The notes: a model not told the origin generated them from the sequence alone. Counted from the stretch's first letter, positions 5,922-44,921 are shown. The stretch: DNA of 64,000 nt from Candidatus Levyibacteriota bacterium (GCA_016182185.1 JACOXU010000001.1:15700-79699); one strand, 5' to 3'. Numbers and translations are program-made.

Positions 5922-7804
5922 ACAACTTTTGCCTTGAATTTTTGTTGTACCGCCTCAATAATTTTTTCTCTTATCTTTCCTACCTCTTCATTGGTTAAAT
6001 TTCTTTCTCTGTGTTGATAGATAATATGAAAAGTTCTGTTATTTTTAAACATATCTTTTAATTCTACGCTTTCTATAATTGTACTTTGTTTTTTTATTTC
6101 ATTGATAATTTCGCCGGTTTTTGCAATTCCGGAAATTTCAATGGTGATGTCTTCAACAACAGGGGGATACTTAGGAATAGGTTTGTATACTCTTTCAAGT
6201 TTAGTCTTTTCTAAGATATCTGAAAAATTCAATTCAAATATTACACCATCGCGGGTGACGTCAATGAATCTACTTGGATCTTCATCAATATTTAATTCTT
6301 CAAAAATTCTTTCAAGGAGCCCCTTTATTTCGTAGAAGTTTTTTTCGTTTGAAATTCCTGAAAGCATATATAATTCATTGGCTTCATCAAGAGTCGGACC
6401 AAGATAAACCTTGCCCATTTCAAACAGATTTATCTTTTCAAAATTAGGTTTATTTTGAACAAAAGCTTTTAATAAGTTTATTTTAAGAGTCGGTCTTAGA
6501 TACTCAAACTCCCGACTTACAGGATTATCGACTCTTAATACCTTATCAGAGTTTATGTTAAGATTTACCAAATCCTTTTCACTTATGAGGCTATAGGAGT
6601 AAATCTCAGAAAATCCGTCTGCCTTTAATAAATTTTTTACTTTCTCATCAATCAAATAATTCTTAAAATATAGAATTGTTTTGGTAGGTATTTCTCCTTC
6701 GGGAATAGTTTTGGGGAAATTATTGTATCCATATAATCTTGCGACTTCTTCAATAAGATCTTCTTCAATCTTAAGATCGTTTCTGTAAGTAGGAATTACA
6801 ACTTTGATCAGATCTTTTCCAGTGTCTTTTGGAGAAAGATTTAATTTCTTCAAAATATTCAAAACTATTTCTTTTTTGATTGTGATTCCAAGAATCTTAT
6901 TTAGCCTCTCGTAGCTTAAGTTTACTACCCAGGGGGCAAAGTCCTCCTTTTTGATGTCAAAAATACTGCTTGAAATCTCCCCGCCTGCTATCTCAAGTAT
7001 TAAATCAAGGCATCTTTCGAGTGCTTCAGGAGTTCCCCCTGCATTTACTCCTCTTTCAAAAATACTTGATGCCTCAGAACGAAGCCCCAGTGATTGTGAA
7101 GCCCTTCTTATAAGAACTGGGACCTCCACGGGTACTCTTATGAAGATTGTTTTTGTATTTTCAAAAGTTCCACTGTTGAATCCCCCTTTTATACCGCAAA
7201 GATCAATAATATTTTCGCGATCTGAGATTATAACCGCTCCTTTGGGTAAATAATAGGAAAGACCATCAACGCTTTTGAATTTTTCTCCGCCTTTTGCTTG
7301 ATGGACCTTCATTACTTTTCCATTAATCCTTTCATAGTCAAATGCATGAATCGGATTACCGAGCTCAAACATCACATAATTTGTTATGTCAACGATATTA
7401 TTGATCGGACGTTGACCGATTTTTATTAATTTTTCGGAAAGCCATTTGGGAGAATCTTTAACTTTTATTCCATCAACTATGATTCCTGTGAATCTTGGAT
7501 TTATAGTACTTTCTGTTTGTATATTAAGAGGTAAAGATTTTTTGGGCTTTATATTCTTTATATCAATTCTGGTTTCAGGATATTTAATCTGTCTTGCTTC
7601 AATTGCCGCAATTTCCCGGGCAATTCCAATAATTGAGAGAAGATCGGGTCGGTTTGGGGTTATCTCAAATTCAAAAAATATATCATTATCAATTTTGGTT
7701 ATTTTTTCAGTTCCTAGGCCTACCTCGGTAAGTTTCTCACCAAGTTTCTCAGGTGAGAGCGTGATATCAACGTATTCTTTAAGCCATGATAAAGGTGCTA
7801 CCAT
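5918..7804 (-). CDS. pheT: phenylalanyl-tRNA synthetase beta subunit, short form lacking the N-terminal tRNA-binding domain
   Basis: B3/B4 and B5 domain-like sequence plus a C-terminal FDX-ACB-like region. It lies immediately downstream of pheS. At 628 aa it is shorter than the ~800 aa typical bacterial PheT. Confidence 0.85.
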   Translation of the reverse strand: MVAPLSWLKEYVDITLSPEKLGEKLTEVGLGTEKITKIDNDIFFEFEITPNRPDLLSIIGIAREIAAIEARQIKYPETRIDIKNIKPKKSLPLNIQTESTINPRFTGIIVDGIKVKDSPKWLSEKLIKIGQRPINNIVDITNYVMFELGNPIHAFDYERINGKVMKVHQAKGGEKFKSVDGLSYYLPKGAVIISDRENIIDLCGIKGGFNSGTFENTKTIFIRVPVEVPVLIRRASQSLGLRSEASSIFERGVNAGGTPEALERCLDLILEIAGGEISSSIFDIKKEDFAPWVVNLSYERLNKILGITIKKEIVLNILKKLNLSPKDTGKDLIKVVIPTYRNDLKIEEDLIEEVARLYGYNNFPKTIPEGEIPTKTILYFKNYLIDEKVKNLLKADGFSEIYSYSLISEKDLVNLNINSDKVLRVDNPVSREFEYLRPTLKINLLKAFVQNKPNFEKINLFEMGKVYLGPTLDEANELYMLSGISNEKNFYEIKGLLERIFEELNIDEDPSRFIDVTRDGVIFELNFSDILEKTKLERVYKPIPKYPPVVEDITIEISGIAKTGEIINEIKKQSTIIESVELKDMFKNNRTFHIIYQHRERNLTNEEVGKIREKIIEAVQQKFKAKVV

Positions 7805-7805
7805 C

Positions 7806-8846
7806 TTAATAAAATTGATTAAGGATTCTCAGATCTGGGTTTGTCAAAAGTCTTAAATCATCCATTTGGAAGCGTTGGGTAACTAATCTTGAAAGTCCGA
7901 TGGCAAAGGCAAAGCCGGATACTTTCTTAGGATCGAAGCCCACTGCCTTTAAAACATTTGGATGAATCATTCCCGATGGCATAATTTCACTCCATCCCGA
8001 TTGCTTACAGAAGCTGCAGCCTTTCCCCTTACAAACTGTACATTCTATGTATGTGTCAACTCCGGGCTCAACAAAGGGAAAGTTGGTAGTCGCAAATTTA
8101 ATTTTGATTTTTTCACCCATGAGTTTTTGAAGTACATAATCTATAGTGCCGAAAAGATCGGTCAGTCGGACGTTGGTATCCACCAAAAAACCTTCTACCT
8201 GCCAGAATTCGAATCCATGAGATGCATCGACCTGCTCATATCGATAATTCTTGCCTGGTACAATTACCCGAAGAGGCGGTTTAGTCTTCTCCATTACTCT
8301 TCCTTGCATAGCAGACATTTGAGTTCGCAAGATTATTTCTCCGGGTTTTGCGTGGCTTTTATGAATATCAAGATAGAGAGTCTGCTGAGTATCGCGGGCC
8401 GGATGATCTTTTGGAATATTAAGCATTTCAAAATTATATTTATCGGTTTCGATTTCGGGACCATCTGCTGCCTGAAAACCAAGAGTTTTAAAAATTTCAA
8501 TAACGTCCGATAGCACAAGGCTTAAAGGGTGAAGGTGCCCGATATTGGGTTTAATTCCCGGACTAGTAATATCTATTTTTTCAATTATTTTTTCTGCCTG
8601 ATTTTTTCCAATCACTGAGGCTTGGCTTGCGATCGTTTCTTCTATTGTACTTTTTACTTCATTAGCGAGCTTTCCCACTTCAGGCTTTTTATCCTTTGGT
8701 AGTTTTGAAAGCTCCTTAATTGCAAGTGTCAACCTCCCGTTTCTTCCCAAAAACTGTAATTTTATTTCATCGAGTTCTTTTTGATCCTGAGCCTCAAGTA
8801 TCAAAGAAACAGCTGAATTTTTAATTTGAATTAAATTTTCTTCCAT
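7806..8846 (-). CDS. pheS: phenylalanyl-tRNA synthetase alpha subunit
   Basis: Class II aaRS core including the FPFVEPGVDTY-type motif; 346 aa; directly precedes pheT. Confidence 0.9.
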   Translation of the reverse strand: MEENLIQIKNSAVSLILEAQDQKELDEIKLQFLGRNGRLTLAIKELSKLPKDKKPEVGKLANEVKSTIEETIASQASVIGKNQAEKIIEKIDITSPGIKPNIGHLHPLSLVLSDVIEIFKTLGFQAADGPEIETDKYNFEMLNIPKDHPARDTQQTLYLDIHKSHAKPGEIILRTQMSAMQGRVMEKTKPPLRVIVPGKNYRYEQVDASHGFEFWQVEGFLVDTNVRLTDLFGTIDYVLQKLMGEKIKIKFATTNFPFVEPGVDTYIECTVCKGKGCSFCKQSGWSEIMPSGMIHPNVLKAVGFDPKKVSGFAFAIGLSRLVTQRFQMDDLRLLTNPDLRILNQFY

Positions 8847-24288: not shown

Positions 24289-25638
24289 TTATTCGATTGC
24301 AAAAAATGCCCTTTGTAACCATTCTGGTAAAGCTGGGTGAATATAAACAGAATTTGTAATTGCTTTTACAGTTCCATTTGCCTTCATGGCAACAATTACT
24401 TCATGAATTAGGGTAGATGCTTCATGACCTACGATATGAGCTCCAAGAATTTTTTCTCCATTCTTATCAGTTAGAACTTTTGCGAGTCCATTTTCTTGTA
24501 ATGCTCCACCCATACCGGTATCTTTGAGCTCTGCTCTCCCTACTTTATAAGCTGTACCTTCTTTTTTAAGCTCTTGCTCTGTTTTACCAACTCCACCAAC
24601 CTGAGGAGATGAAAAAACCGCATGACCTATTGCAAAGGGATTAAATGGTACTTTTTTATCAGTAAAAGCGTTTCTAATTGAAAATCCAACTTGGTCATTG
24701 GCGGTATGTCGAAACGGCAAGATACCAAGTATATCCCCAAACGCCCAGATACCATCAACATTTGTCTCAAGGTACTCATTAACCTTAATATACCCATTGT
24801 CATTCACCTCAACTCCTGTTGTCTTAACATCTAAGATGTCGGTATTGGGAACTCTGCCAGTAACAACCAGCAATTGATCACTCTCAAGTTTTCTTTCACT
24901 GTCTTTTAAGGTAATAATGAAATTGCCGTTTTGGTAGGAAACCGACTCTGCCTGTGTATTAAAGAGAATTTCATATTTTTTAGAAAACTTCTTGGTGAAC
25001 CATTGGGCTATTTCTTCATCTTCATCACTCAACATGAGATTTCCCCTGACCAAAATTGTAATTTTAGTTCCTAAAGCTCCATAAAAATGTGCAAGCTCTG
25101 CTGCTATATAACCGCCGCCTATAATTATTAAATGTTTTGGTTGTTTCTCAAGCCTTAATGCTTTTGTACTATCTAGAAATGGTGTATTTTTCAAACCCGG
25201 AATTGGGGGTATGGAAGGCCTGGTGCCTCCGACAATAAATACTTTATCAGCCTCAATCTGACCATCTCCTACCTGCATTTGTTTTGGACCAATAAACTTA
25301 CCGCGCATTTTATAGAGGATAGGGTTTCCGTTTTCTCTGACAGACTTTTCAATACCGGCCGAATCAGTATCTACCACCTCAGAGACTCGTTTTACGATCG
25401 ATGCAAAATCTATGCTTTCTATCTTGCTTTTAATCCCAAATTTTCCGCTATTTTTAATAGCTTCAGCAACATCCGATGAGTGGATCAACATCTTTGAGGG
25501 TATGCAACCTCGATTTAGACACGTTCCACCCAGCGGGCCTTCTTCGACTATTGCAACAGACATTTCTTTTTCTGCAGCAAATGATGCTACTTCGAGTCCG
25601 GCTCCTGATCCCACAACTAAAACATCAAACTTTTTCAT
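24289..25638 (-). CDS. class I flavoprotein pyridine nucleotide-disulfide oxidoreductase (glutathione reductase / Lpd-like)
   Basis: FAD-binding GSGAGL; redox-active GGTCLNRGCIPSK; a second Rossmann GGGYIAAEL with a VRG element; a C-terminal dimerisation domain with HPALPE. Confidence 0.85.
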   Translation of the reverse strand: MKKFDVLVVGSGAGLEVASFAAEKEMSVAIVEEGPLGGTCLNRGCIPSKMLIHSSDVAEAIKNSGKFGIKSKIESIDFASIVKRVSEVVDTDSAGIEKSVRENGNPILYKMRGKFIGPKQMQVGDGQIEADKVFIVGGTRPSIPPIPGLKNTPFLDSTKALRLEKQPKHLIIIGGGYIAAELAHFYGALGTKITILVRGNLMLSDEDEEIAQWFTKKFSKKYEILFNTQAESVSYQNGNFIITLKDSERKLESDQLLVVTGRVPNTDILDVKTTGVEVNDNGYIKVNEYLETNVDGIWAFGDILGILPFRHTANDQVGFSIRNAFTDKKVPFNPFAIGHAVFSSPQVGGVGKTEQELKKEGTAYKVGRAELKDTGMGGALQENGLAKVLTDKNGEKILGAHIVGHEASTLIHEVIVAMKANGTVKAITNSVYIHPALPEWLQRAFFAIE

Positions 25639-34431: not shown

Positions 34432-34728
34432 ATGTCAAACAAATTATTCATAGGAAGTCTTTCATACAGTGCTACAGATTCACAACTTGAGGAACATTTT
34501 TCAAAGAGCGGAAAAGTCCTGTCTGCCAAGGTAATTACAGATAGATATTCAGGTCAGGGTAAAGGTTTTGGATTCGTCGAGATGTCTACTGAAGAGGAAG
34601 CAAAAAAAGCAATGAAAGAGCTAAACGGTACGACTCTTGATGGAAGAAACATTGTAGTAAAAGAAGCAAAGCCTCAAGAAGAAAGAGGAAGTCGCAGGAA
34701 TGATAGCTCGGGAAGCATTCAGTGGTAA
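34432..34728 (+). CDS. RNA-binding protein with RRM domain
   Basis: RNP-2 LFIGSL and RNP-1 KGFGFVEM; AAAGGAGG RBS. Confidence 0.85.
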   Translation: MSNKLFIGSLSYSATDSQLEEHFSKSGKVLSAKVITDRYSGQGKGFGFVEMSTEEEAKKAMKELNGTTLDGRNIVVKEAKPQEERGSRRNDSSGSIQW

Positions 34729-36346: not shown

Positions 36347-37081
36347 ATGAAGGAAACTTTAAAAGAAACTCCTCAAGAGAAAAAACATTCTTTTTTAGTA
36401 AGAAATGCATTGGTGGCATTGGGAATTGCCTTTGTGACTGACCGGGTTCTTCGAGAGGGCTTAAATCCTGAAGGGCGAAAATTGGTAAGGCAAATTATCG
36501 TAAAAGCATGGACAGGTTCTAAAGTTTCAGTCGCCCGGGAAGTGGCAAAGCTTAATCAGGAATCAAAACTCTCCATACATATTGATGGACAAAAGCATAT
36601 ACCAGCTTCTGGCCCTACAATACTTATCACAAATCATACTCACGGAGGTCCCCTTAATAATCTCGGTCAATACTTTGAGATGGTAAAAGAAGGATATGAT
36701 GCAAGACGTCAGGTAGTAGACGACTATGAGAGAGAACCTTTTATTATTGTTCAAAGAGGGTTAGGTAAAGTAAAACCAGTAAGAATTTTGTCCGGTCTTT
36801 TTTATGATATTGTAGGAGGAGCTTTTAACTGCGAGATCGTAGAAATTCCCAAATATAATGAAAAGGGAGATATCATAAATAGTCAAAATTTGAGACCGGC
36901 TGCTATTCGTAGGGTAGTTGATGGTGGAGCATCTTTATGGCTTCCCCAAGGTAGGGAAAGAGATCCCGAAGATTTTGAATTTCCTGAAAAAGCAACAGGA
37001 TTCTTAAGGAAAATAAATTATGAAGATCGTTTCGTGCAATTAGTTCCGGTCAGGTCGATACCGGATAAGGTGGGGATTTAA
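36347..37081 (+). CDS. hypothetical protein (244 aa)
   Basis: Long ORF with no convincing catalytic motif. Confidence 0.5.
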   Translation: MKETLKETPQEKKHSFLVRNALVALGIAFVTDRVLREGLNPEGRKLVRQIIVKAWTGSKVSVAREVAKLNQESKLSIHIDGQKHIPASGPTILITNHTHGGPLNNLGQYFEMVKEGYDARRQVVDDYEREPFIIVQRGLGKVKPVRILSGLFYDIVGGAFNCEIVEIPKYNEKGDIINSQNLRPAAIRRVVDGGASLWLPQGRERDPEDFEFPEKATGFLRKINYEDRFVQLVPVRSIPDKVGI

Positions 37082-37225
37082 AAATTGTTTTTGGCCCGCC
37101 GGTTGATGTAGGCCATGTAGTAAAAGCAGGTGGAATTAATTACTTTGCCCAAAAGCACATCGCTGTTTTGAAATAATTGGGATCATATTGTTTCTTTTAC
37201 ATAATTTGTTTATAATTTAACAGTT

Positions 37226-37299
37226 GCGGGTGTAGTTCAATGGCAGAACACAACTTTTCCAAAGTTGATACGAGGGTTCGATTCCCTTCACCCGCTCCA
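37226..37299 (+). tRNA. tRNA-Trp (anticodon CCA)
   Basis: GCGGGTGTAGTTCAATGGCAGAACACAACTTTTCCAAAGTTGATACGAGGGTTCGATTCCCTTCACCCGCTCCA. A TATAAT box lies 10 nt upstream (37211-37216), with TTGTTT at the -35 position. Confidence 0.9.
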
Positions 37300-37692
37300 A
37301 ACGATTTTTATCGAACTCGTGGATTTTAGCCTCAAAAAATTGCTAAAATTTACAAAAATATAATCCTATAACGTTATCCCCTAACGGGAATCGAACTAGC
37401 CACAAACTTATTATTTCTTCTCTTGATCAGGTTATTCAAAATCTCCCATCCACTTTGACCCATAAAATTCTTGCATGATTGCACAAGCCAATAAATACAC
37501 AACTTCTTGTATATCTTTTAGCTCATCTTCCGTAGCATTAGGATAGTATTTCTTGATTATTTCCAATGGTAACACAATAAATGCTCACCTCCTTTAGCAG
37601 AAGTTGAAAATTTAGCATATAAAGGATACTTACGCTGGGAAGAGTGATTATAAAAATCTTTTAAATAGGCAAGAGCTAGGGGTAATTATTTT

Positions 37693-39066
37693 TCAGACAC
37701 AGCAACTTAATTTAGAAATGTCCTTAGTAAAGGACAAGGCGGCAATTTTAATAGCCTCCGAAAGCGTCGGGAACATAGGTAAGGAATTTACCACGTCATC
37801 AATGGTATTTTTATTTTTAACTAACGACATCGCTTGAGCAATTAAATCACCTGCATTAGGAGCTAAAATATGCACCCCAAGAATTACTTTTGTCTCAGGG
37901 TGGATAACCATTTTTATTAAACCTTCCGTTCTGCCAATAATAAGAGCCTTTGGAACGTCTGCAAAAGAAACAGTCCGGCAAAGACACCTTCCTAACTGTT
38001 TCATTTCTTGTTCTTCAGTAAGTCCTACACCTGCGAGCTGTGGGTCAGTAAAGATAGTCCAAGGGACAGTATTGTAATCAATACTATTTTGAGTACCTTT
38101 AAGTGCATTTTCAGCAGCAAGCGTTCCCTCTCTGCCTGCTGTTGGTTCTTCTCTAATGGGTAGATTTGTCACATCGCCCACCGAAAAAATGTGTGGTTGA
38201 GATGATTGAAATTGAGGACTTACTTTTATCGCCTGTTTATCATCAATTTCTATATTAGCTTTATCAAGACCTAAGCCTTGTGTCTCATCGGCTGATACTT
38301 GTTCTTCTTTATTAGCGGTTATATAAGTCAGGACTTTCTTACCTCCTTCTTTACGTGCAGATTTAACTTGTACATTTGTTTTAATAGTTATGCCCTCTTT
38401 GGTAAGTATTTCGGCCAAACGATCAGTAAGTTCTCTTTCTGCCGGAGGGAAAATAGAGACATTCTTTTGTAAAACAGTTATTTTTGTTCCAAAACGAGAA
38501 TACATTTGTGCAAACTCCAATCCCAAAGGCCCCGCACCAACTACAATAAGTTCTTTGGGAAGATTTTTAATCTGTAAAGCCTCAATATGAGTCAAGTATC
38601 CAACTTCTTGTATATTCTCAATCGGTGGTACAGTTGCGGTCGATCCGGCTGCAATAATAAATTTCTTTGCTTGATATTTTTGTCCATTAACTTCAATCTC
38701 GTTAGGGGAAACAAAACTAGCTTTACCTTCTATGTGGGTAACATTTTCTAAACCATTTAAGACTTTCTCATACTTTTCAGCTCTAAGCTTTGCTACTAAA
38801 TCGAGTTCATGCTGAACAACTTGACTAAAATTAAAGTTTTTAACTTCTATATCAATCCCTGGAATATTGTGACTTTTAGCAAGATGCATTACTTCTCCTG
38901 CCCAAAGAAGCGTTTTAGAAGGAACACAACCAACGTTTACACAGGTTCCGCCTAGAGGAAGTCCCTGATTAACCATCAAAGTTTTTGCTCCAAGCTCATT
39001 GGCTTTAATAGCGGAAGCAAAAGCCCCTGCGCCTCCTCCGATAATGATTAAATCGTACTCATTCAT
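37693..39066 (-). CDS. mercuric reductase-like flavoprotein (MerA core without the N-terminal HMA domain)
   Basis: FAD motif IIGGGAGA; redox-active LGGTCVNVGCVPSK, identical to the MerA active-site signature; the C-terminus ends in ...KLSCCV, a Cys pair as in MerA ...QLSCCAG. Confidence 0.75.
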   Translation of the reverse strand: MNEYDLIIIGGGAGAFASAIKANELGAKTLMVNQGLPLGGTCVNVGCVPSKTLLWAGEVMHLAKSHNIPGIDIEVKNFNFSQVVQHELDLVAKLRAEKYEKVLNGLENVTHIEGKASFVSPNEIEVNGQKYQAKKFIIAAGSTATVPPIENIQEVGYLTHIEALQIKNLPKELIVVGAGPLGLEFAQMYSRFGTKITVLQKNVSIFPPAERELTDRLAEILTKEGITIKTNVQVKSARKEGGKKVLTYITANKEEQVSADETQGLGLDKANIEIDDKQAIKVSPQFQSSQPHIFSVGDVTNLPIREEPTAGREGTLAAENALKGTQNSIDYNTVPWTIFTDPQLAGVGLTEEQEMKQLGRCLCRTVSFADVPKALIIGRTEGLIKMVIHPETKVILGVHILAPNAGDLIAQAMSLVKNKNTIDDVVNSLPMFPTLSEAIKIAALSFTKDISKLSCCV

Positions 39067-39129
39067 ATTGTCTTAATTTATGCTCGACAAGGACAACATG
39101 GCCCCATAATTTCTCACCCCCTTTAGCAT

Positions 39130-40602
39130 TTATACCCCACATCCTGCTCCACCTTTTGTTTGGGGGATAAGATTTGGTATCTTGGCAATTTCTGTCTGTA
39201 CATTCTTGCCCCAGCCGCTACCTGTTGAGTAATCAGTACCCAACGCCACTTTTGGATCAACTTTGTCCCACTCTATGTTTTTAACAACCTTAAAATACAG
39301 GGCTGTTTGAATATAATTTTGTGGGAACCAAGAGGAATTGAAGGCGAGAGCCTCTTTGTAAAGTTCATCCTCGGAGAGTCCCTGTGATGCGCCAAGTTGC
39401 AGAAGTCCTAATAACGCTGATCCATGATTGCAGTCCTGAAAGAAAGTAGAGTTATTGCAACAGGGACGATAGGTGTTTTTGGCAATTTGAGTGACTAAAG
39501 CTTCTTGCTCTGGTGTCAATTCAACTATTCTGAATTTATTGAAATACGCTCCGCCATTTTCTTCCTTTCCTATATTCCAACCCCCAGTTGAAGCAAAGTT
39601 AAAAAGAGATTTTCCATTAACAGGACTATCTTTATTTGTTGACATATAGTTTGATAGTCCTAATGCCCAAAGAAGGTTAACGTAAGTGTTAGCGTTTTCT
39701 CTGGTGAGAAGAATAGGCCTATATGAAGATTGACTTAATATATCTTTCAGCTCGGGAGGCAATCCTCCGCGTTCTTTATAAATTTCTTCAAATTTACCCT
39801 GGTCAATAACGCCATTTTGTACCAATTCTACGACGCTATCCCCTAAGAAAATTTTGCTTTGAAAACCTTGTGCTGGCAAAACTTTAGCTACAACCTCGTC
39901 ATAAACTTTGTTTCCTGTTGAAGAAATGTTAGAGGTATTTAGTTTATTGTCGTTTGAGTTAAGAAGTGCTGTCTTATTAAAGAAGCTGAAAATTATTGGA
40001 TCAGTCTTAAGCATATTCCAGCCAATAAGTATCAAAACAGCAACCAATGCTAAAGAGGCTATAAGATAAGGTTTATCTTTTGCTCGATATGAAGTAGGGC
40101 GGGGAATCGGGCAAGTTTCATCGCCGCAACTTAAAGATTTTAACTCTCTTGTTGTTAACCAGACAGGAAGCGCCATTAAGGCAAAAGAAAGTGATTTTAG
40201 TTCTAAACCTTGCAGGGGGAAAGCTGCCAGCCCTCCGGCAATGCCAATAGCGGATAAAAGAACAGAACCGCAGACTGGACAAGCAGAGGCCGCCACCCCT
40301 ACTAATGCTCCTAAACTGCTTCCGCCTTGAACTTTGAGTCTGGGCGGTCCAAATTTCCTCCAGCGATAAACAAATAATGAGGCGTTAACGCCAAAAAGGA
40401 CAATAGTACCAAAAGTAAGAAGGATATATGACCATAAGTACACAGGCTGACTTTTGGTGTTGTTGATAAGATTATAAATACTTGAATTAAGGCTTAAGCT
40501 CCAATAGAAGATAAGCAGTAGAAGTAGAGAAGCCACCAGCCCGATTGAACCGTAAAATAAAAAGGTCAATAATTTTTTCTTAAATCTGTTAATTCTTCTC
40601 AT
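39130..40602 (-). CDS. Cys-containing polytopic membrane protein with a large extracytoplasmic C-terminal domain (candidate metal-ion transporter)
   Basis: About 5 TM helices in the first 190 aa. One carries ACPVCG; a loop carries SCGDETCP. The ~300-aa hydrophilic C-terminal domain has a PCCNNSTFFQDCNHG motif and ends GGAGCGV. It lies in an operon with the ArsR and MerA-like genes. Confidence 0.55.
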   Translation of the reverse strand: MRRINRFKKKLLTFLFYGSIGLVASLLLLLIFYWSLSLNSSIYNLINNTKSQPVYLWSYILLTFGTIVLFGVNASLFVYRWRKFGPPRLKVQGGSSLGALVGVAASACPVCGSVLLSAIGIAGGLAAFPLQGLELKSLSFALMALPVWLTTRELKSLSCGDETCPIPRPTSYRAKDKPYLIASLALVAVLILIGWNMLKTDPIIFSFFNKTALLNSNDNKLNTSNISSTGNKVYDEVVAKVLPAQGFQSKIFLGDSVVELVQNGVIDQGKFEEIYKERGGLPPELKDILSQSSYRPILLTRENANTYVNLLWALGLSNYMSTNKDSPVNGKSLFNFASTGGWNIGKEENGGAYFNKFRIVELTPEQEALVTQIAKNTYRPCCNNSTFFQDCNHGSALLGLLQLGASQGLSEDELYKEALAFNSSWFPQNYIQTALYFKVVKNIEWDKVDPKVALGTDYSTGSGWGKNVQTEIAKIPNLIPQTKGGAGCGV

Positions 40603-40604
40603 AT

Positions 40605-41216
40605 TTATCTAGCGTGATGATGTTCGCTATCTCCGCCGCATCCATCAGATAAATTCCACACTTGGGTAACCTGTTGTCCAGTAAATTGGTAATTTTTAAT
40701 TAAGATTTTACCCAACCCTCCATAAACATTCCATCTCCAGCATTTACAGCAACAAGGACCTTTTTCATCAGAATTTTGCATGGCATAATCATAAGCTTCC
40801 TGTTCTTCTGTGGACAACTGAATACTGTCATAATCTGCCATTAACTTTTTGGCCAGCTTTGCCTCAATGTCATAAGGATCAGGCGGAATTTCAGCGATAT
40901 TTTGATATTTCTTCAATCCTTCAACCTGCTCGCTGTAGCGGTGCATACTCATGGGGCTACAACAAGAACCTTGCAAACGAGAATTATCTGGCATTGAAGT
41001 GATAGAATCACGAAATGCTCCCGAGCAGGAGGAATTACCATGTTTTGAGAGGTAATCAAATTTTGCAGCCAACGCATCGTTAACCAATCCCTTTGTTTCC
41101 TGTTGAGATGACTGCTTAAGAGAAAAATTAAATAGCGGCTTAGATGAGAAAAAATAAAAATAACCTGCAATAAAGGCTGAAATAATTAGTGCTAATACAA
41201 GTATCTTTTTATTCAT
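40605..41216 (-). CDS. secreted Cys/His-rich protein (203 aa)
   Basis: Signal/TM helix; Cys clusters NSSCSGAF, QGSCCSPMSMHRY, GPCCCKCWRW; C-terminus DGCGGDSEHHHAR. Confidence 0.5.
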   Translation of the reverse strand: MNKKILVLALIISAFIAGYFYFFSSKPLFNFSLKQSSQQETKGLVNDALAAKFDYLSKHGNSSCSGAFRDSITSMPDNSRLQGSCCSPMSMHRYSEQVEGLKKYQNIAEIPPDPYDIEAKLAKKLMADYDSIQLSTEEQEAYDYAMQNSDEKGPCCCKCWRWNVYGGLGKILIKNYQFTGQQVTQVWNLSDGCGGDSEHHHAR

Positions 41217-41532
41217 TGTTTTCTAATAATTGACTTTTAATGATCGAAGCAAATTTATTTTTACCTAAAGAATATAAAACTTGCTTTGCTTGCCTTCTAT
41301 TCTCAACCACTTGTATTTCTTTCAACTTCTTTAGGCTGTGGGATACTGTAGAAATTGGTAATCCAATAATTTCCGCCATCTCAGAAACTGTTAGTTCTGG
41401 ATGATGACAAAGAAGGTAGCAAATCCTCATTCTGGTGAGATCACCTGTTGTCCCAAACCTTTCAGCACATGCCTCAATTTTCTTGTTGTCTTGAAGTTCA
41501 TCCCGAAGCACTTTTTTCTTCCTCATTTGCAT
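41209..41532 (-). CDS. ArsR/SmtB-family metalloregulator
   Basis: Winged HTH ...LTRMRICYLLCHHPELTVSEMAEIIGLPISTVSHSLKKLKEI...; CxxC-type (CYLLC) metal site in the alpha3 region. The start is probably the ATG (MQMRKKK); the ORF-track extension to 41577 uses TTG and would overlap the operator. Confidence 0.75.
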   Translation of the reverse strand: MQMRKKKVLRDELQDNKKIEACAERFGTTGDLTRMRICYLLCHHPELTVSEMAEIIGLPISTVSHSLKKLKEIQVVENRRQAKQVLYSLGKNKFASIIKSQLLENNE

Positions 41533-41542
41533 ATCTATACAA

Positions 41543-41579
41543 ATGATAGGAATTTGTTTTACTTTTGTCAATGACAAAA
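41543..41579 (-). promoter_or_regulatory. promoter with perfect 8-1-8 palindromic operator (TTTTGTCA-A-TGACAAAA) overlapping -35 TTGACA; -10 TATCAT
   Basis: Minus strand: TTGACA (plus 41566-41571), a 17-nt spacer, then TATCAT (plus 41543-41548), about 10 nt before the ArsR ATG. The palindrome spans 41563-41579. Confidence 0.5.
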
Positions 41580-41846
41580 TTGTAATAACATAACAGAAAT
41601 TAATAAAAAGCTTGTGCTATAATCTGTTTACCGAATGAACCTTGTGGTGAAAGTACCTTACTGTTAGGGAGCGAATGTTGATATCATAATTGATAATTCA
41701 TCTCGGCCACTCGGATCGATTTTCTAATATGCATACTTATACATTTTTTAGACCTAAAGTATAGGCTAAATCTGGTAAAAGGCCGTCAGATAGAAATAAT
41801 CTGAAGAATTCTGGCAGTCTGGCTAAGATCACGTCAGGAGCTCAAT

Positions 41847-42245
41847 TTATTCCCCAAGCCATTTTAAGGCCTCGTTTTTATCGTTGAACCAATGAATTGT
41901 ATCGTTTCTTCCCGCTGCTCCAATGATGAAATTTGCAGCAACTTGTAGGAATACATTTTGGCCGACAATAGCAGATTTTATAATCTGTTTGTGTTTCGCA
42001 AGCTCTATCCAAATCCTCCTTGCCCCACTTGATATATGACCACGGGAGAAGTATAAGATCTCAACTATAACTTCATATTTTTTACTCGGATCGGCATTGA
42101 ATATATTAAAAAGTCTTTCTTTTACTATTTCCATTCTTCTTGTGTTTTCATCGGGATCCGCTATATCAGTGATAATGTGAATGTGGATTACTTCATTTTC
42201 GAGCCGGATTTTAAAAGTATGTTTTAATTCATCATCTGTTCTCAT
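41847..42245 (-). CDS. hypothetical protein (possible STAS-like fold)
   Basis: 132 aa; no strong motif. Confidence 0.4.
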   Translation of the reverse strand: MRTDDELKHTFKIRLENEVIHIHIITDIADPDENTRRMEIVKERLFNIFNADPSKKYEVIVEILYFSRGHISSGARRIWIELAKHKQIIKSAIVGQNVFLQVAANFIIGAAGRNDTIHWFNDKNEALKWLGE

Positions 42246-42346
42246 GGTTGATTATCTCAGTATATATGAATAAAAGGATATGATGTCAAGCAATGAGCCG
42301 CTTTTATAAACGGGATTTATGACGTATAATTTATTTACTAAATCTT

Positions 42347-43267
42347 GTGGAAATAATTTTTATTTTACTTACGATTCTTGGCTTATCGCTCTTTGAGGTT
42401 ATAACTAGCATTGATAATGCTGTTATAAACGCGGAAGTCTTGTCTTCGATGTCTCAGAAGGCCAGAAGATGGTTTTTGCTCTGGGGATTTTTATTTGCAG
42501 TTTTTGTAATAAGAGGAATACTGCCCTTACTTTTAGTTTATGCAGCTAATCCTCAGCTTGGACTAATCGGAGCTTTTACAGCAACGCTTAATGGAGGAAA
42601 TGGGATTGCCGAAACCATAAAAGAGTCATCAAGGCCACTTCTGGTGGGCGGCGGAGTTTTCTTGATTTTTCTTTTCTTCAACTGGCTTTTTATTGAACCT
42701 AAAAACTACGGTCTTAGAGCAGAAAAGTTTTTCCACGCACAAGGCGCATGGTTTTTTTCGATAATATCAATAATACTTTCTATAATTGTCTGGTTCGCCC
42801 TTAAAGAAAACGGTCTTATGGCGTTTGGCGCGGTGGTAGGCTCAACTGCTTTTTTTATAGTCCATGGATTTCGTCAGTTTGCAGAAACTCAGGAGAAAAG
42901 GCTGGTCTCTCAAGGAATGTCTGATGTATCAAAAATTGCCTATCTTGAAGTACTGGATTCTACTTTTTCTGTTGATGGTGTTGTGGGGGCATTTGCCTTT
43001 ACTTTTTCTGTTCCCTTAATCCTTTTAGGGAACGGATTAGGAGCGCTTGTCTTGCGAAAACTGACAGTCAGCAATATTGACAGAATAAAAAAATATGCCT
43101 ACTTAAAAAATGGTGCTATGTATTCGATATTATTTTTGGGTGCAATAATGATTCTTGATAGTTTTGGATTTCATATTCCACCATGGCTCTCGCCTATCAT
43201 CACCTTCGGTACTGTGGGATATTTCTTCTATAAGTCAAGGCTTGAGTTAAAAAATAATCCCTCATAA
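42347..43267 (+). CDS. TerC/DUF475-family integral membrane protein
   Basis: EVITSIDNAVINAEVL (ExxxSxDN motif); multiple TM helices. Confidence 0.6.
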   Translation: MEIIFILLTILGLSLFEVITSIDNAVINAEVLSSMSQKARRWFLLWGFLFAVFVIRGILPLLLVYAANPQLGLIGAFTATLNGGNGIAETIKESSRPLLVGGGVFLIFLFFNWLFIEPKNYGLRAEKFFHAQGAWFFSIISIILSIIVWFALKENGLMAFGAVVGSTAFFIVHGFRQFAETQEKRLVSQGMSDVSKIAYLEVLDSTFSVDGVVGAFAFTFSVPLILLGNGLGALVLRKLTVSNIDRIKKYAYLKNGAMYSILFLGAIMILDSFGFHIPPWLSPIITFGTVGYFFYKSRLELKNNPS

Positions 43268-43315: not shown

Positions 43316-43388
43316 GCGCCAGTAGCTCAACGGACAGAGCAACTCCCTTCTAAGGAGTAGGTTGTAGGTTCGATTCCTATCTGGCGCG
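43316..43388 (+). tRNA. tRNA-Arg (anticodon TCT)
   Basis: GCGCCAGTAGCTCAACGGACAGAGCAACTCCCTTCTAAGGAGTAGGTTGTAGGTTCGATTCCTATCTGGCGCG. Confidence 0.9.
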
Positions 43389-43473: not shown

Positions 43474-43725
43474 ATGCACTACGTTTATGTGCTAAAAAGC
43501 TTAAAAGACAATAGTTTATATATTGGATATACTACTGATCTTAAGAGAAGAGTTTTTGAACATAATAATGGTTTATCACTCTCAACTAAATATAAAAGAC
43601 CGTATAAATTAATTTTTTACGAGGGGTTTCTGGTCAGAATAGATGCGAAACATAGAGAAATTTATTTGAAAAGTGGATGGGGGTTAAGAACCTTGAAAAA
43701 ACTGCTTAAGAGGACGTTGGTATAA
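43474..43725 (+). CDS. GIY-YIG nuclease-superfamily mini-protein (YhbQ/UPF0213-like)
   Basis: YVYVLKSLKDNSLYIGYTTDLKRRVFEHNNG matches the GIY-YIG motifs. 83 aa. Confidence 0.75.
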   Translation: MHYVYVLKSLKDNSLYIGYTTDLKRRVFEHNNGLSLSTKYKRPYKLIFYEGFLVRIDAKHREIYLKSGWGLRTLKKLLKRTLV

Positions 43726-44479: not shown

Positions 44480-44552
44480 GGTGGATGTAGCTCAACAGTA
44501 GAGCGCCAGGTTGTGGACCTGGAGGTCGCGGGGGCAGCACCCGTCTTCCACC
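44480..44552 (+). tRNA. tRNA-His-like (anticodon GTG) with degenerate D/T loops
   Basis: G(-1) GTGGATG TA GCTC-AACAGTA-GAGC G CCAGG-TTGTGGA-CCTGG AGGTC GCGGG-GGCAGCA-CCCGT CTTCCAC C. Canonical His anticodon arm, G-1 and C73 are present. The D-loop lacks GG, the T-loop lacks TΨC, and acceptor pair 6:67 is U-U. Confidence 0.45.
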
Positions 44553-44633: not shown

Positions 44634-44921
44634 ATGAATGAAACGTTAGACGTTTCAGTTCGATACTACGTTTATATTCTCTACTCTCTTAAAGATAATA
44701 AGTTTTATATTGGCTTCACGAACAACCTCAAAAAACGATTGAGTGAGCATGGTGGTGGAAATGTTGAAGCAACAAAAAATCGGTTGCCGGTAAAACTTAT
44801 TCATTACGAGTATTTTATTAATCGAGCAGATGCTGAAGCTCGAGAAAGATTTTTAAAAAGTGGTTATGGTAGAAAGCAATTTAAGGAAATTCTAAAAAAT
44901 ACCCTCAAGCCTCTGATATAA
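44634..44921 (+). CDS. GIY-YIG nuclease-superfamily mini-protein (YhbQ-like), paralog
   Basis: YYVYILYSLKDNKFYIGFTNNLKKRLSEHGGG; about 50% identical to 43474-43725. Confidence 0.75.
   Translation: MNETLDVSVRYYVYILYSLKDNKFYIGFTNNLKKRLSEHGGGNVEATKNRLPVKLIHYEYFINRADAEARERFLKSGYGRKQFKEILKNTLKPLI

Follow-up and report, generated by a model that had tools for sequence, protein, structure and literature searches.

The stretch of DNA analysed here (64,000 nucleotides, hereafter the window) belongs to the genome of a groundwater candidate-phyla bacterium, Candidatus Levybacteria, and carries a predicted mercury-reductase operon of four genes. The features of the locus are as follows:

37693-41577, minus strand: whole operon, four tightly spaced genes, arsR, P203, P490 and merA (ORF calling)
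41543..41571, minus strand: promoter-like site, TTGACA-17 nt-TATCAT (consensus scan, 11/12 matches)
41523..41546, minus strand: candidate ArsR operator, an imperfect inverted repeat TCATTTGTATA-GA-TATGCAAATGA (11-nt arms, 91% complementary)
41209-41577, minus strand: ArsR ORF, mechanical call from TTG 41577 (ORF calling)
41209..41532, minus strand: arsR, ArsR/SmtB metalloregulator, 107 aa from the likely ATG 41532 (NF033788, HTH_5)
40605-41216, minus strand: P203, predicted exported Cys/His-rich protein, 203 aa (ORF calling)
39130-40602, minus strand: P490, predicted membrane fusion protein, 490 aa (ORF calling)
39988..40350, minus strand: MerT-like core of P490, aa 85-205 (profile comparison, AF2 helices)
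39133..39987, minus strand: predicted extracytoplasmic C-domain of P490, aa 206-490 (predicted topology)
37693-39066, minus strand: merA, core mercuric reductase (TIGR02053)

Since the gene spacing fits (an 8 nt overlap between arsR and P203, then gaps of 2 nt between P203 and P490 and 63 nt between P490 and merA), the four genes were taken as one operon. The original prediction had placed on the minus strand, in this order, an ArsR regulator, a Cys/His-rich protein, a 490-aa membrane protein and a flavoprotein; all four ORFs lie where it put them, and the motifs it quoted from P203, P490 and MerA were all found in the translations.

The −10 element lies ~10 nt ahead of the likely arsR ATG, so that the transcript would be nearly leaderless. 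This ATG is favoured over the TTG by homologues and by the conserved promoter. The candidate operator, kept in four related loci, overlaps the arsR start codon as well as the −10 element. A block TTGACAAAAGTAAAATAAATTCCTATCATTTGTATAGATATGCAAATG is nearly identical across L003, L004, L005 and L016, and the DNA upstream of it is unrelated. In L006 and L008, where the ArsR is of a second subtype, another repeat, TATTTGAATA-GT-TATTCAAATA, stands at the equivalent place. That the regulator belongs to the ArsR/SmtB family was well predicted: in a profile search it scored 64.9 bits with NF033788 (cut-off 55) and matched HTH_5, and it has three conserved Cys, candidate metal ligands (C22, C38 and C42, within 'CA..G..GD.TR.[RK]ICYLLC'). 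The same triad is conserved in the regulators of MerC-, MerTP-, X173- and P203/P490-type CPR mer operons. When metal is absent, the repressor would occupy the inverted repeat, which overlaps the −10 element as well as the start codon of its own gene, and Hg(II) binding at the three-Cys site would release it.

The arsR-P203-P490-merA cassette was also found in L003, L004, L006, L008 and L016, between unrelated flanks. The promoter/operator block is present in 4 loci, and the cassette in 3 of these 4 (L003, L004, L016), L005 having no merA. Near-identical promoter and cassette amid unrelated flanks suggest that the cassette is mobile. Horizontal acquisition had been proposed on the basis of a slightly higher GC content. 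The excess exists, weakly (the block has 0.386, at the 89th percentile, where the whole window averages 0.366 with an sd of 0.016), but in a codon-position comparison the GC3 of P490 and MerA is shifted in opposite directions; composition alone is therefore no evidence of acquisition.

The flavoprotein had been assigned to MerA and not to Lpd or GR, and HMM placement agrees. In a profile search it scored 470.7 bits with TIGR02053, above the curated equivalog cut-off of 454.45, 338.8 bits with the lipoamide dehydrogenase model (cut-off 408.8), and far below the cut-offs with the GR models, which rules out an Lpd or GR identity. Its best PDB matches are the MerA entries 4ywo, 5x1y and 1zk7; the best solved relative, Metallosphaera MerA 4ywo, has the same SCCV C-terminal end. 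Published MerA criteria are a CxxxxC motif, a C-terminal vicinal Cys pair, a Tyr at Bacillus position 264, and at position 605 either a Tyr, as in bacteria, or a Phe, as in Archaea (PMC8261052). Here we found the redox-active site LGGTCVNVGCVPSK (C42, C47), Y99, the archaeal variant F432 at the second of these positions, and a C-terminal SCCV (C455, C456). These signatures are conserved in 118-120 of 120 CPR homologues. The NmerA domain is absent, i.e. the reductase is the core enzyme. We conclude from its sequence that it is an archaeal-type core MerA, which would use NAD(P)H to convert Hg(II) into volatile Hg(0). Given that CPR merA frequently adjoins thiol-relay genes, and that no assay of a CPR MerA was found in the articles consulted, the protein might instead be a disulfide reductase, whose C-terminal Cys pair supplies P490 with electrons at its cytoplasmic loop, rather than a physiological mercuric reductase. 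This is highly improbable: of all the flavoprotein disulfide reductase models, the MerA equivalog is the only one whose trusted cut-off the score exceeds, every MerA-specific residue is there, Y99 and the C-terminal CC among them, and close relatives belong to canonical MerC and MerTP operons.

Candidate-phyla MerA is known already, both published and annotated. The present protein has a 100% identical counterpart in NCBI, named 'mercury(II) reductase' and encoded on a 617 kb Candidatus Levybacteria contig, and the CPR MerA clade, with Daviesbacteria and other CPR groups, has been described and interpreted as a transfer from Archaea (Christakis, Barkay & Boyd 2021, PMC8261052). The accessory genes of CPR mer operons are not discussed in that article. 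Our operon resembles the narrow-spectrum ArsR-type mer operons, archaeal and early-branching in type, to which this clade belongs (PMC8261052) in its core MerA with C42/C47, Y99, C-terminal CC and a Phe at the 605-equivalent, in the absence of NmerA and merB, and in the use of ArsR/SmtB in place of MerR. It differs in the interval between regulator and merA, occupied here by two uncharacterised families whose genes match no curated MerT, MerP, MerC, MerF or MerE model.

Neither P203 nor P490 gave any Pfam or NCBIfam family match, nor any solved fold match. The family of P203 (~2500 homologues) is uncharacterised, with up to 66% identity between candidate-phyla bacteria and rhizobia; the protein is predicted to be extracytoplasmic and anchored by its N-terminus. 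Its predicted fold is helical, and it has eight invariant Cys (64, 85, 86, 155, 156, 157, 159 and 193), clustered as C85C86 and C155C156C157, and a His-rich C-terminus (H199-201). In its small size, predicted export and clustered Cys (CCCxC), it recalls CopG (DUF411), whose gene is present in the rhizobial P203 operon. The CopG motif is CxCC, and P203 differs from it by its eight invariant Cys, its helical rather than thioredoxin-like predicted fold, and the lack of a Pfam DUF411 match.

P490 is a fusion protein, made of an N-terminal membrane domain and an outer domain, each of which also occurs as a separate protein (~220 aa and ~310 aa, respectively). More than 1215 homologues were collected, in 722 clusters at 50% identity, some of those from Parcubacteria having an additional cytoplasmic Cys-rich, zinc-ribbon-like N-terminus. 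Five helices are predicted, with the N-terminus inside and the C-terminal domain outside (AF2 helices and loop K/R counts); as helix 4 is weakly hydrophobic, this topology is a prediction. The motifs are ACPVCG (C108, C111), SCGDETCP (C159, C164), PCC (C381, C382), C391/H393, and a C-terminal GGAGCGV which carries C488. To call the outer domain Cys-rich, as had been done, was generous, since its 285 aa include four Cys only; all four are however invariant in 36 aligned homologues, within a set comprising P380-C381-C382, C391, H393 and C488. H393 is the sole His of P490, and C488 lies on a low-confidence tail.

MerT, MerP and MerC had been declared absent. As far as Pfam and NCBIfam models are concerned this stands, none of the three being matched at E<=0.01: neither P203 nor P490 matched MerP/HMA profiles (HMA fold, GMxCxxC), and P490 had no match to MerC (PF03203), with an hhalign probability of 0.7-1.9% against CPR MerC, whose in-membrane LCPLC resembles ACPVC by the CPxC motif only. 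For MerT the claim has to be softened. Significant matches of P490 to the MerT profiles (PF02411, NF010314, NF033560) were not found, but its residues 85-205 have a MerT-like layout. This core is predicted to consist of helix 3, which holds C108-P-V-C111 within the membrane, helix 4, the cytoplasmic loop C159-GDET-C164-PIP, and helix 5. Of these three helices the first thus contains one Cys pair; a second pair lies in the loop between the other two, where C-x4-C-P-I-P corresponds to C-x5-C-A-I-P of MerT. In the predicted topology, the loop with C159/C164 is K/R-rich and precedes helix 5; of the two Cys, C164 is invariant, and ~1/4 of homologues have K or T instead of C159. The single NCBIfam match of residues 85-205 was MerT, over nearly the full profile (E 0.27, 11.4 bits for a cut-off of 150), and the weak NCBIfam matches of the N-domain family were to MerT models only. 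Aligned with MerT by hhalign, the segment gave a probability of 21% (P 0.001), in a colinear match with both Cys pairs aligned (ASACPVCGS with ASTCCLGP, and SCGD-ETCPIPR with ACKPGEVCAIPQ). This score was reached by 8 of 150 local shuffles (~5%), the conservative kind, and by 0 of 150 full shuffles.

P490 also shares with MerTP fusions an equivalent operon position and the succession of a membrane core and a C-terminal extracytoplasmic metal-binding domain, although the latter is a 285-aa novel fold instead of a 70-aa HMA domain. Other differences from MerT are the in-membrane pair (CPVC in place of CC), two extra N-terminal helices, HMM scores far below the cut-offs, and the fact that most P490 family members are not beside merA. 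Residues 85-205 may be remote MerT homologues, for which this comparison is suggestive but not proof.

Sister CPR operons, with the same Cys-triad ArsR family and the same MerA clade (78-86% identity), are organised as ArsR-Redoxin-MerC-MerA, ArsR-MerTP fusion-MerA, or, in L106, ArsR-Redoxin-CcdA-like-X173-MerA. X173 (173 aa), directly upstream of merA, matches the P490 N-domain with 95% probability. Some CPR merA operons have only Redoxin-DsbD_TM-Redoxin at the P203/P490 position, meaning that this position is not always held by a transporter. The proposal that unrecognised proteins replace the usual ones is therefore right as to position, which is that of MerC or MerT-MerP in the sister operons, but does not hold for mercury specificity. 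Homologues of the two proteins beside merA elsewhere were indeed found, but most occurrences are without merA: among 32 well-flanked full-length P490 loci, merA lies within 4 kb in 4. An Hg(II) importer such as merT/merP would be harmful without MerA, so that Hg import cannot be the general role of the module. The pair is not mercury-specific, and most of its occurrences are among copper/heavy-metal and thiol-relay genes. Gene context identifies P203 and P490 as a widespread soft-metal (Cu/Hg/Cd) envelope module, coupled here to merA.

Could the module be a copper (or general Cu/Cd/Zn) system merely co-located with merA, without functional link to MerA? P203-P490 would then handle Cu(I), for instance by receiving the exports of P-type ATPases, and a single promoter would drive the cassette as a composite metal-stress island. 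P203 homologues are found within MCO-CopG(DUF411)-SCO-DsbA-CcdA operons, C-domain-only proteins adjoin a heavy-metal P-type ATPase in all 5 of 5 well-flanked loci, and are also accompanied by regulators of the CsoR or MerR type, cupredoxin and HMA, and the L003 island has HMBD-ATPase, DsbD_2-cupredoxin and HMA genes around the cassette. We nevertheless consider this quite unlikely. No copper gene of the window lies within the operon or next to it, the regulator is the Cys-triad ArsR type of MerC/MerTP operons and not CsoR, translational coupling is tight, and arsR-P203-P490-merA has repeatedly been co-transferred as a unit. Moreover X173, the N-domain relative, directly precedes merA in an operon that lacks copper genes.

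The thiol-relay neighbours raise another question, as transfer across the membrane to outside Cys-motif proteins is Cys-based in CcdA/DsbD-CcmH/TlpA and the copper-linked Scs as well. The P490 membrane domain might move reducing equivalents, not metal, in the manner of CcdA/DsbD, and keep reduced the Cys of the P490 outer domain and P203; these would shield envelope thiols or restore them, or keep Hg/Cu sequestered outside the cell, MerA separately handling the Hg(II) that leaks in. The two outer proteins have an 'LTxEQ...PCC' helix-loop motif in common, P203 comes directly after dsbA-ccdA in rhizobial copper operons, C-domain-only genes adjoin DsbD_TM-like, CcdA and TlpA genes, and P203 and C-domain-only genes recur beside ccdA, dsbD, tlpA and dsbA in copper islands. 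CPR merA operons often have Redoxin and DsbD_TM genes, and a redox role would also account for the pair being common without merA. P203 and the P490 C-domain bear a weak structural resemblance to CcmH (PF03918), a family defined by a three-helix bundle and a redox-active Cys motif after helix 1. CPR bacteria are generally not known to possess c-type cytochromes, on which CcmH acts. CcdA has one Cys in each of two helices, whereas the N-domain of P490 has a Cys pair in one helix and an invariant loop Cys, which is the MerT/MerC pattern. Profiles of CcdA, DsbD_TM and DsbD_2 gave no match, and hhalign of the N-domain with the DsbD_TM-like and DsbD_2 proteins of related loci gave 0.2%, i.e. no detectable sequence relation. 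Finally, X173 coexists in L106 with a CcdA-like protein and a Redoxin, and is therefore not their substitute. Taken together, a redox or protective role seems to us rather unlikely.

The explanation we prefer, to which we give about an even chance, is that P203-P490 is a thiol relay for soft metals, recruited in an ArsR-controlled operon to supply MerA with Hg(II). Outside the membrane, P203 and the P490 outer domain would catch Hg(II) with their thiols (in the latter PCC, C391/H393 and the C488 tail). Ligand exchange would hand it to C108-x-x-C111 within the membrane part of the MerT-like core, from where it would go to the cytoplasmic loop C159/C164 and then to the C-terminal Cys pair of MerA. 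More tentatively, P203 and the P490 outer domain could be two new extracytoplasmic soft-metal (Hg/Cu) thiolate families, and the P490 membrane domain together with X173 a new, very divergent branch of MerT-type thiol relays. They would form an unrecognised metal-trafficking system of candidate-phyla bacteria and of proteobacterial copper/heavy-metal islands, which replaces MerT/MerP here.

Mercury resistance is among the best understood metal systems, yet P203 and P490 are strongly conserved families with neither name nor model, found inside mercury, copper and heavy-metal resistance loci. As homologues are present in the culturable genera Sinorhizobium, Ensifer, Burkholderia and Paraburkholderia, their function is genetically testable without culturing the candidate-phyla organism. 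If true, a role in metal relay or in the protection of envelope thiols would fill a gap in soft-metal handling by small-genome groundwater bacteria and by plasmid-borne islands.

The four ORFs of the operon lie head to tail, and all the motifs quoted in the original prediction were found in their translations. The regulator and P203 (the 203-aa exported Cys/His-rich protein) overlap by 8 nt, P203 and P490 (the 490-aa membrane protein) are 2 nt apart, and 63 nt separate P490 from the reductase.

41209-41577, minus strand: ArsR-type regulator, mechanical ORF with a TTG start
40605-41216, minus strand: P203, 203 aa, ORF
39130-40602, minus strand: P490, 490 aa, ORF
37693-39066, minus strand: flavoprotein (MerA), 457 aa, ORF
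41571-41543, minus strand: strong promoter-like site TTGACA-17-TATCAT, from a consensus scan
41523-41546, minus strand: inverted repeat 11-2-11, TCATTTGTATA-GA-TATGCAAATGA, candidate operator overlapping the -10 element and the start codon

The promoter-like site falls within the mechanical TTG-started ORF. Homologues of the regulator start at the equivalent of the ATG at 41532, so that the protein is most likely 107 aa long. As read from the sequence, promoter and inverted repeat have the layout expected for an autoregulated ArsR/SmtB operon. In a consensus scan of 37000-42400, the operon strand showed nothing resembling a terminator 3′ of merA. The regulator scored 64.9 bits against NF033788 (cut-off 55), and three Cys are conserved in its 'CA..G..GD.TR.[RK]ICYLLC' segment. 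This triad was present in every type of mer operon examined in candidate-phyla bacteria (CPR), canonical MerC or MerT-MerP ones included, and the putative three-thiolate site would suit Hg(II) as inducer.

The 48-nt promoter/operator block was near-identical in four related loci, and the DNA upstream of it was unrelated among them; it marks the edge of a cassette moving as a unit. The same promoter and cassette in unrelated flanks indicate mobility, as does the finding that P490 and P203 are still 65-70% identical between distant classes of CPR. Composition does not set the block apart as foreign: its higher GC content, noted in the original prediction, stood (0.386 versus 0.366 for the window), but as a sign of horizontal acquisition it did not, being at the 89th percentile with inconsistent GC3 shifts. 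Neither att-like direct repeats nor an integrase flanked the block, where only short chance repeats were found. Cassettes 83-93% identical to that of the window occur at four loci (L008, L010, L016 and L018) in MAGs labelled uncultured Gammaproteobacteria, Planctomycetia and Woesearchaeota; binning contamination is the likely cause of these labels, very recent transfer a less likely one.

The operon is preceded, on its upstream side, by genes for a STAS/SpoIIAA-like protein (41847-42245, minus strand) and a DUF475/TerC-family membrane protein (42347-43267, plus strand; NF010612, 426 bits, cut-off 386). Relatives of TerC have been linked with the export of metals. No riboswitch was detected ahead of the DUF475/TerC gene, and an Rfam scan of the window returned tRNAs and nothing else, among them one at 44481-44552 (plus strand) that ARAGORN missed. 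Two small paralogous ORFs of 83 and 95 aa (43474-43725 and 44634-44921, plus strand) flank this tRNA, downstream of a tRNA-Arg at 43316; judged by eye, they look GIY-YIG-like.

From its sequence, the flavoprotein is identified as MerA, as had been proposed. It scored 470.7 bits against TIGR02053 (cut-off 454.45) and reached the cut-off of no Lpd, GR or other model. Its closest solved relatives are mercuric reductases, the top one, from Metallosphaera sedula (4ywo), having the same SCCV end. Published criteria for MerA are signature Cys and Tyr residues, Phe at the 605-equivalent denoting the archaeal variant (PMC8261052). The window protein has C42/C47, C455/C456 and, as regards the Tyr residues singled out in the original prediction, Y99 with Phe at the 605-equivalent, i.e. 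the archaeal variant; of 120 close homologues, 118-120 keep these signatures. An Lpd or GR identity is thus ruled out by the HMM scores together with the signature residues, and the clustering with Lpd that would speak against a mercuric reductase was not found by these measures. NCBI has an entry of the same sequence (100% identity), named 'mercury(II) reductase', on a 617-kb Candidatus Levybacteria contig. Christakis et al. 2021 (PMC8261052) had already reported a clade of CPR MerA proteins as the sister group of the archaeal ones, and the enzyme as such is not new. Set beside these data, a non-mercury role for the flavoprotein is very improbable. A second pyridine-nucleotide disulfide oxidoreductase is encoded at 24298-25638 (minus strand); with 27.5% identity to MerA along 461 aa, it is presumably Lpd or an enzyme related to it.

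P203 and P490 matched no Pfam or NCBIfam model, and their PCC-motif segments matched nothing in Pfam at E≤10. Profiles of the two families gave no match among PDB sequences, and no solved structure resembling P490 was found. Both families are strongly conserved and entirely unnamed, with 2553 matches for P203 and more than 1215 for P490 (722 clusters at 50% identity). They are not related to each other by hhalign (probability 2.6%, nothing but a short shared motif). P490 is a fusion, since its membrane N-domain (~220 aa) and its C-domain (~310 aa, with one anchor helix) also occur alone. The N-domain has five helices in the AF2 model, helix 4 being only weakly hydrophobic, and the K/R distribution suggests an N-terminus inside and a C-domain outside. 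Invariant among homologues are C108 and C111 in helix 3, C164 in the predicted cytoplasmic loop, P380-C381-C382, C391 and H393 (the sole His of the protein) in the outer domain, and C488, three residues before the end on a tail modelled with low confidence; C159 is kept in about three quarters. In about half of the Parcubacteria homologues an extra cytoplasmic N-terminal stretch is found, 'C(E/G)EC(G/R)F.Y...WAEKCE.WCKEH.SCN' (alignment A1 columns 11-60; P0019, P0043, P0054), which resembles a zinc ribbon and may form a domain that binds metal in the cytoplasm; the stretch is missing from the window P490.

The sole NCBIfam match of P490 segment 85-201 was MerT, far under threshold (E 0.27) and spanning nearly the whole profile; another member of the family, with the N-domain only, matched a MerT/CopZ model. 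For comparison with the P490 core, an alignment of MerT sequences was built from plasmid genes annotated as such; its Tn501 sequence was 100% identical to annotated merT. By hhalign (probability 21%, P 0.001) the core and this alignment were colinear along 77-104 columns, with the two Cys pairs in register, ASACPVCGS with ASTCCLGP and SCGD-ETCPIPR with ACKPGEVCAIPQ. The observed score of 25.1 compared with 18.4 for the reversed alignment, and was reached by 8 of 150 12-column local shuffles and by none of 150 full shuffles. The core is therefore MerT-like in layout and homology to MerT is plausible, short of proof; P490 should not be classed within the MerT family. In architecture it parallels MerT-MerP fusions. 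Kinship of the N-domain with DsbD_TM-like proteins, DsbD_2, CPR MerC or a single MerTP sequence was rejected (hhalign 0.2-1.9%). A shorter relative, X173, was found in a different Levybacteria genome, its gene immediately preceding merA (L106:4445-4966). This membrane protein of 173 aa has ACASC inside the membrane and CESCH at the C-terminus; it matched the P490 N-domain profile with 95% hhalign probability and Bacillus-type MerT weakly (E 0.008). Unannotated, and without a tblastn match in plasmids, it may stand for a minimal mercury transporter family.

The genes accompanying merA were surveyed on long contigs that encode eight close homologues of MerA.

Gene orders around close MerA homologues
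ArsR-Redoxin-MerC-MerA: 2/8 loci
ArsR-MerTP fusion-MerA: 1/8
ArsR-Redoxin-CcdA-like-X173-MerA: 1/8
CsoR...Redoxin-DsbD_TM-Redoxin-MerA, beside an HMBD P-type ATPase: 2/8
CsoR-DUF1573-DsbD_TM-like-[P490 C-domain only]-Met-rich protein-MerA: 1/8
ArsR-MerA-DsbD_2/cupredoxin-HMA: 1/8

The window arrangement, ArsR-P203-P490-MerA, was also found at L003, L004, L006, L008 and L016, which answers whether the two proteins adjoin merA elsewhere. Given this modular slot between regulator and merA, P203 and P490 occupy the position of the transporter; thiol-relay genes occupy the same slot too. We found no description in the literature of CPR mer accessory genes or of the rhizobial P203 homologue.

The converse survey covered 100 loci in genomes and metagenomes, neighbours being counted within 4 kb of P490 at the 32 full-length loci with at least 2.5 kb of flank on each side.

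Neighbours of P490
P203: 23/32 loci
Unnamed His-rich 155-171-aa family: 14/32
ArsR: 8/32
merA: 4/32
P-type ATPase: 4/32

Several P490 genes lie amid housekeeping genes, e.g. adjoining pheS. At each of the five well-flanked loci with the C-domain alone, a heavy-metal P-type ATPase is adjacent, and cupredoxin, HMA, DsbD_2 and CDF genes are often present as well. In cultured bacteria the C-domain occurs (42-45% identity) on Burkholderia and Paraburkholderia megaplasmids, near P-type ATPases, HMA, a MerR-type regulator, thioredoxin, CcdA, TlpA, SCO and DsbD; one such homologue is WP_202821866.1 of Burkholderia thailandensis p1. P203 is found on Sinorhizobium, Ensifer and Microvirga plasmids (52-66% identity, all Cys kept), directly downstream of multicopper oxidase-DUF411-SCO-DsbA-CcdA in both Sinorhizobium plasmids inspected; WP_088195301.1 is an example of a P203 homologue encoded behind ccdA. 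These contexts point to a general soft-metal and thiol envelope component rather than a mercury invention. A copper-only module, functionally uncoupled from MerA, is a less likely reading, and a rather improbable one. The main rival, unlikely as we judge it, is that P203 and P490 relay reductant or serve a protective role. The CcdA, DsbD and TlpA neighbourhoods speak for it, as do a weak CcmH resemblance in models of P203 and the P490 C-domain and the rarity of merA beside the pair, because a Hg importer without MerA should be harmful; the Cys pattern of P490, the lack of similarity to DsbD-type proteins by hhalign and the coexistence of X173 with a CcdA-like protein at L106 argue against it.

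Other families were seen around the module. The His-rich one, membrane-anchored, with 'HWH...IPANIGIG...HTH(D/E)' motifs and two C-terminal Cys (L004:6473-6940, L019:4287-4802 and 12 other loci), sits between or beside P203 and P490 and matched nothing in Pfam or NCBIfam; it is probably a third module member, missing in the window. Recurring just upstream of P203 in Parcubacteria modules is a membrane protein of 140 aa that bears the motif 'GCPLMM...C.M...EH' (L001:4874-5296 and ~15 other Parcubacteria loci) and matched no family. Directly downstream of P490, a 76-aa protein with nine Cys (L007:1656-1886; also L100 ~8339-8425) belongs to the GDCCVxC domain proteins (NF041374, 94.5 bits, cut-off 40), a further Cys-rich family that accompanies the module and is also near merA. 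The rhizobial homologue of P203 is annotated in S. meliloti KH35c as one ORF of 400 aa (L115:5881-7083) and in S. medicae ml60 as two (L114:5881-6462 and 6780-7082, 193 and 100 aa); in its middle part the longer product looks as if read through out of frame, which makes an error in one of these annotations probable. Within a few kb of P490, both in the window (34432-34728, plus strand) and at a distant Parcubacteria locus (L001:7507-7827), there is a gene for a bacterial RRM_1 RNA-binding protein, possibly by coincidence.

The best-supported reading, to which we give about an even chance, is that P203, P490 and MerA form a thiol-ligand-exchange relay for Hg(II). The metal would be captured by the outer thiols of P203 and of the P490 C-domain, would pass inward via the in-membrane CxxC of P490 and then the Cys of its cytoplasmic loop, and would be received by the C-terminal Cys pair of MerA, reduction to Hg(0) acting as the sink. 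What the data show are the identities of the genes, the conserved Cys, the unity of the operon, the matching slot in sister operons and the MerT-like layout; topology, metal binding, direction of transfer and inducer are inferred. The original prediction, a mer operon with unrecognised transport components, is thus confirmed as an observation and supported in part as an interpretation. The interest of the operon lies in the two uncharacterised families, P203 and P490, and not in merA.
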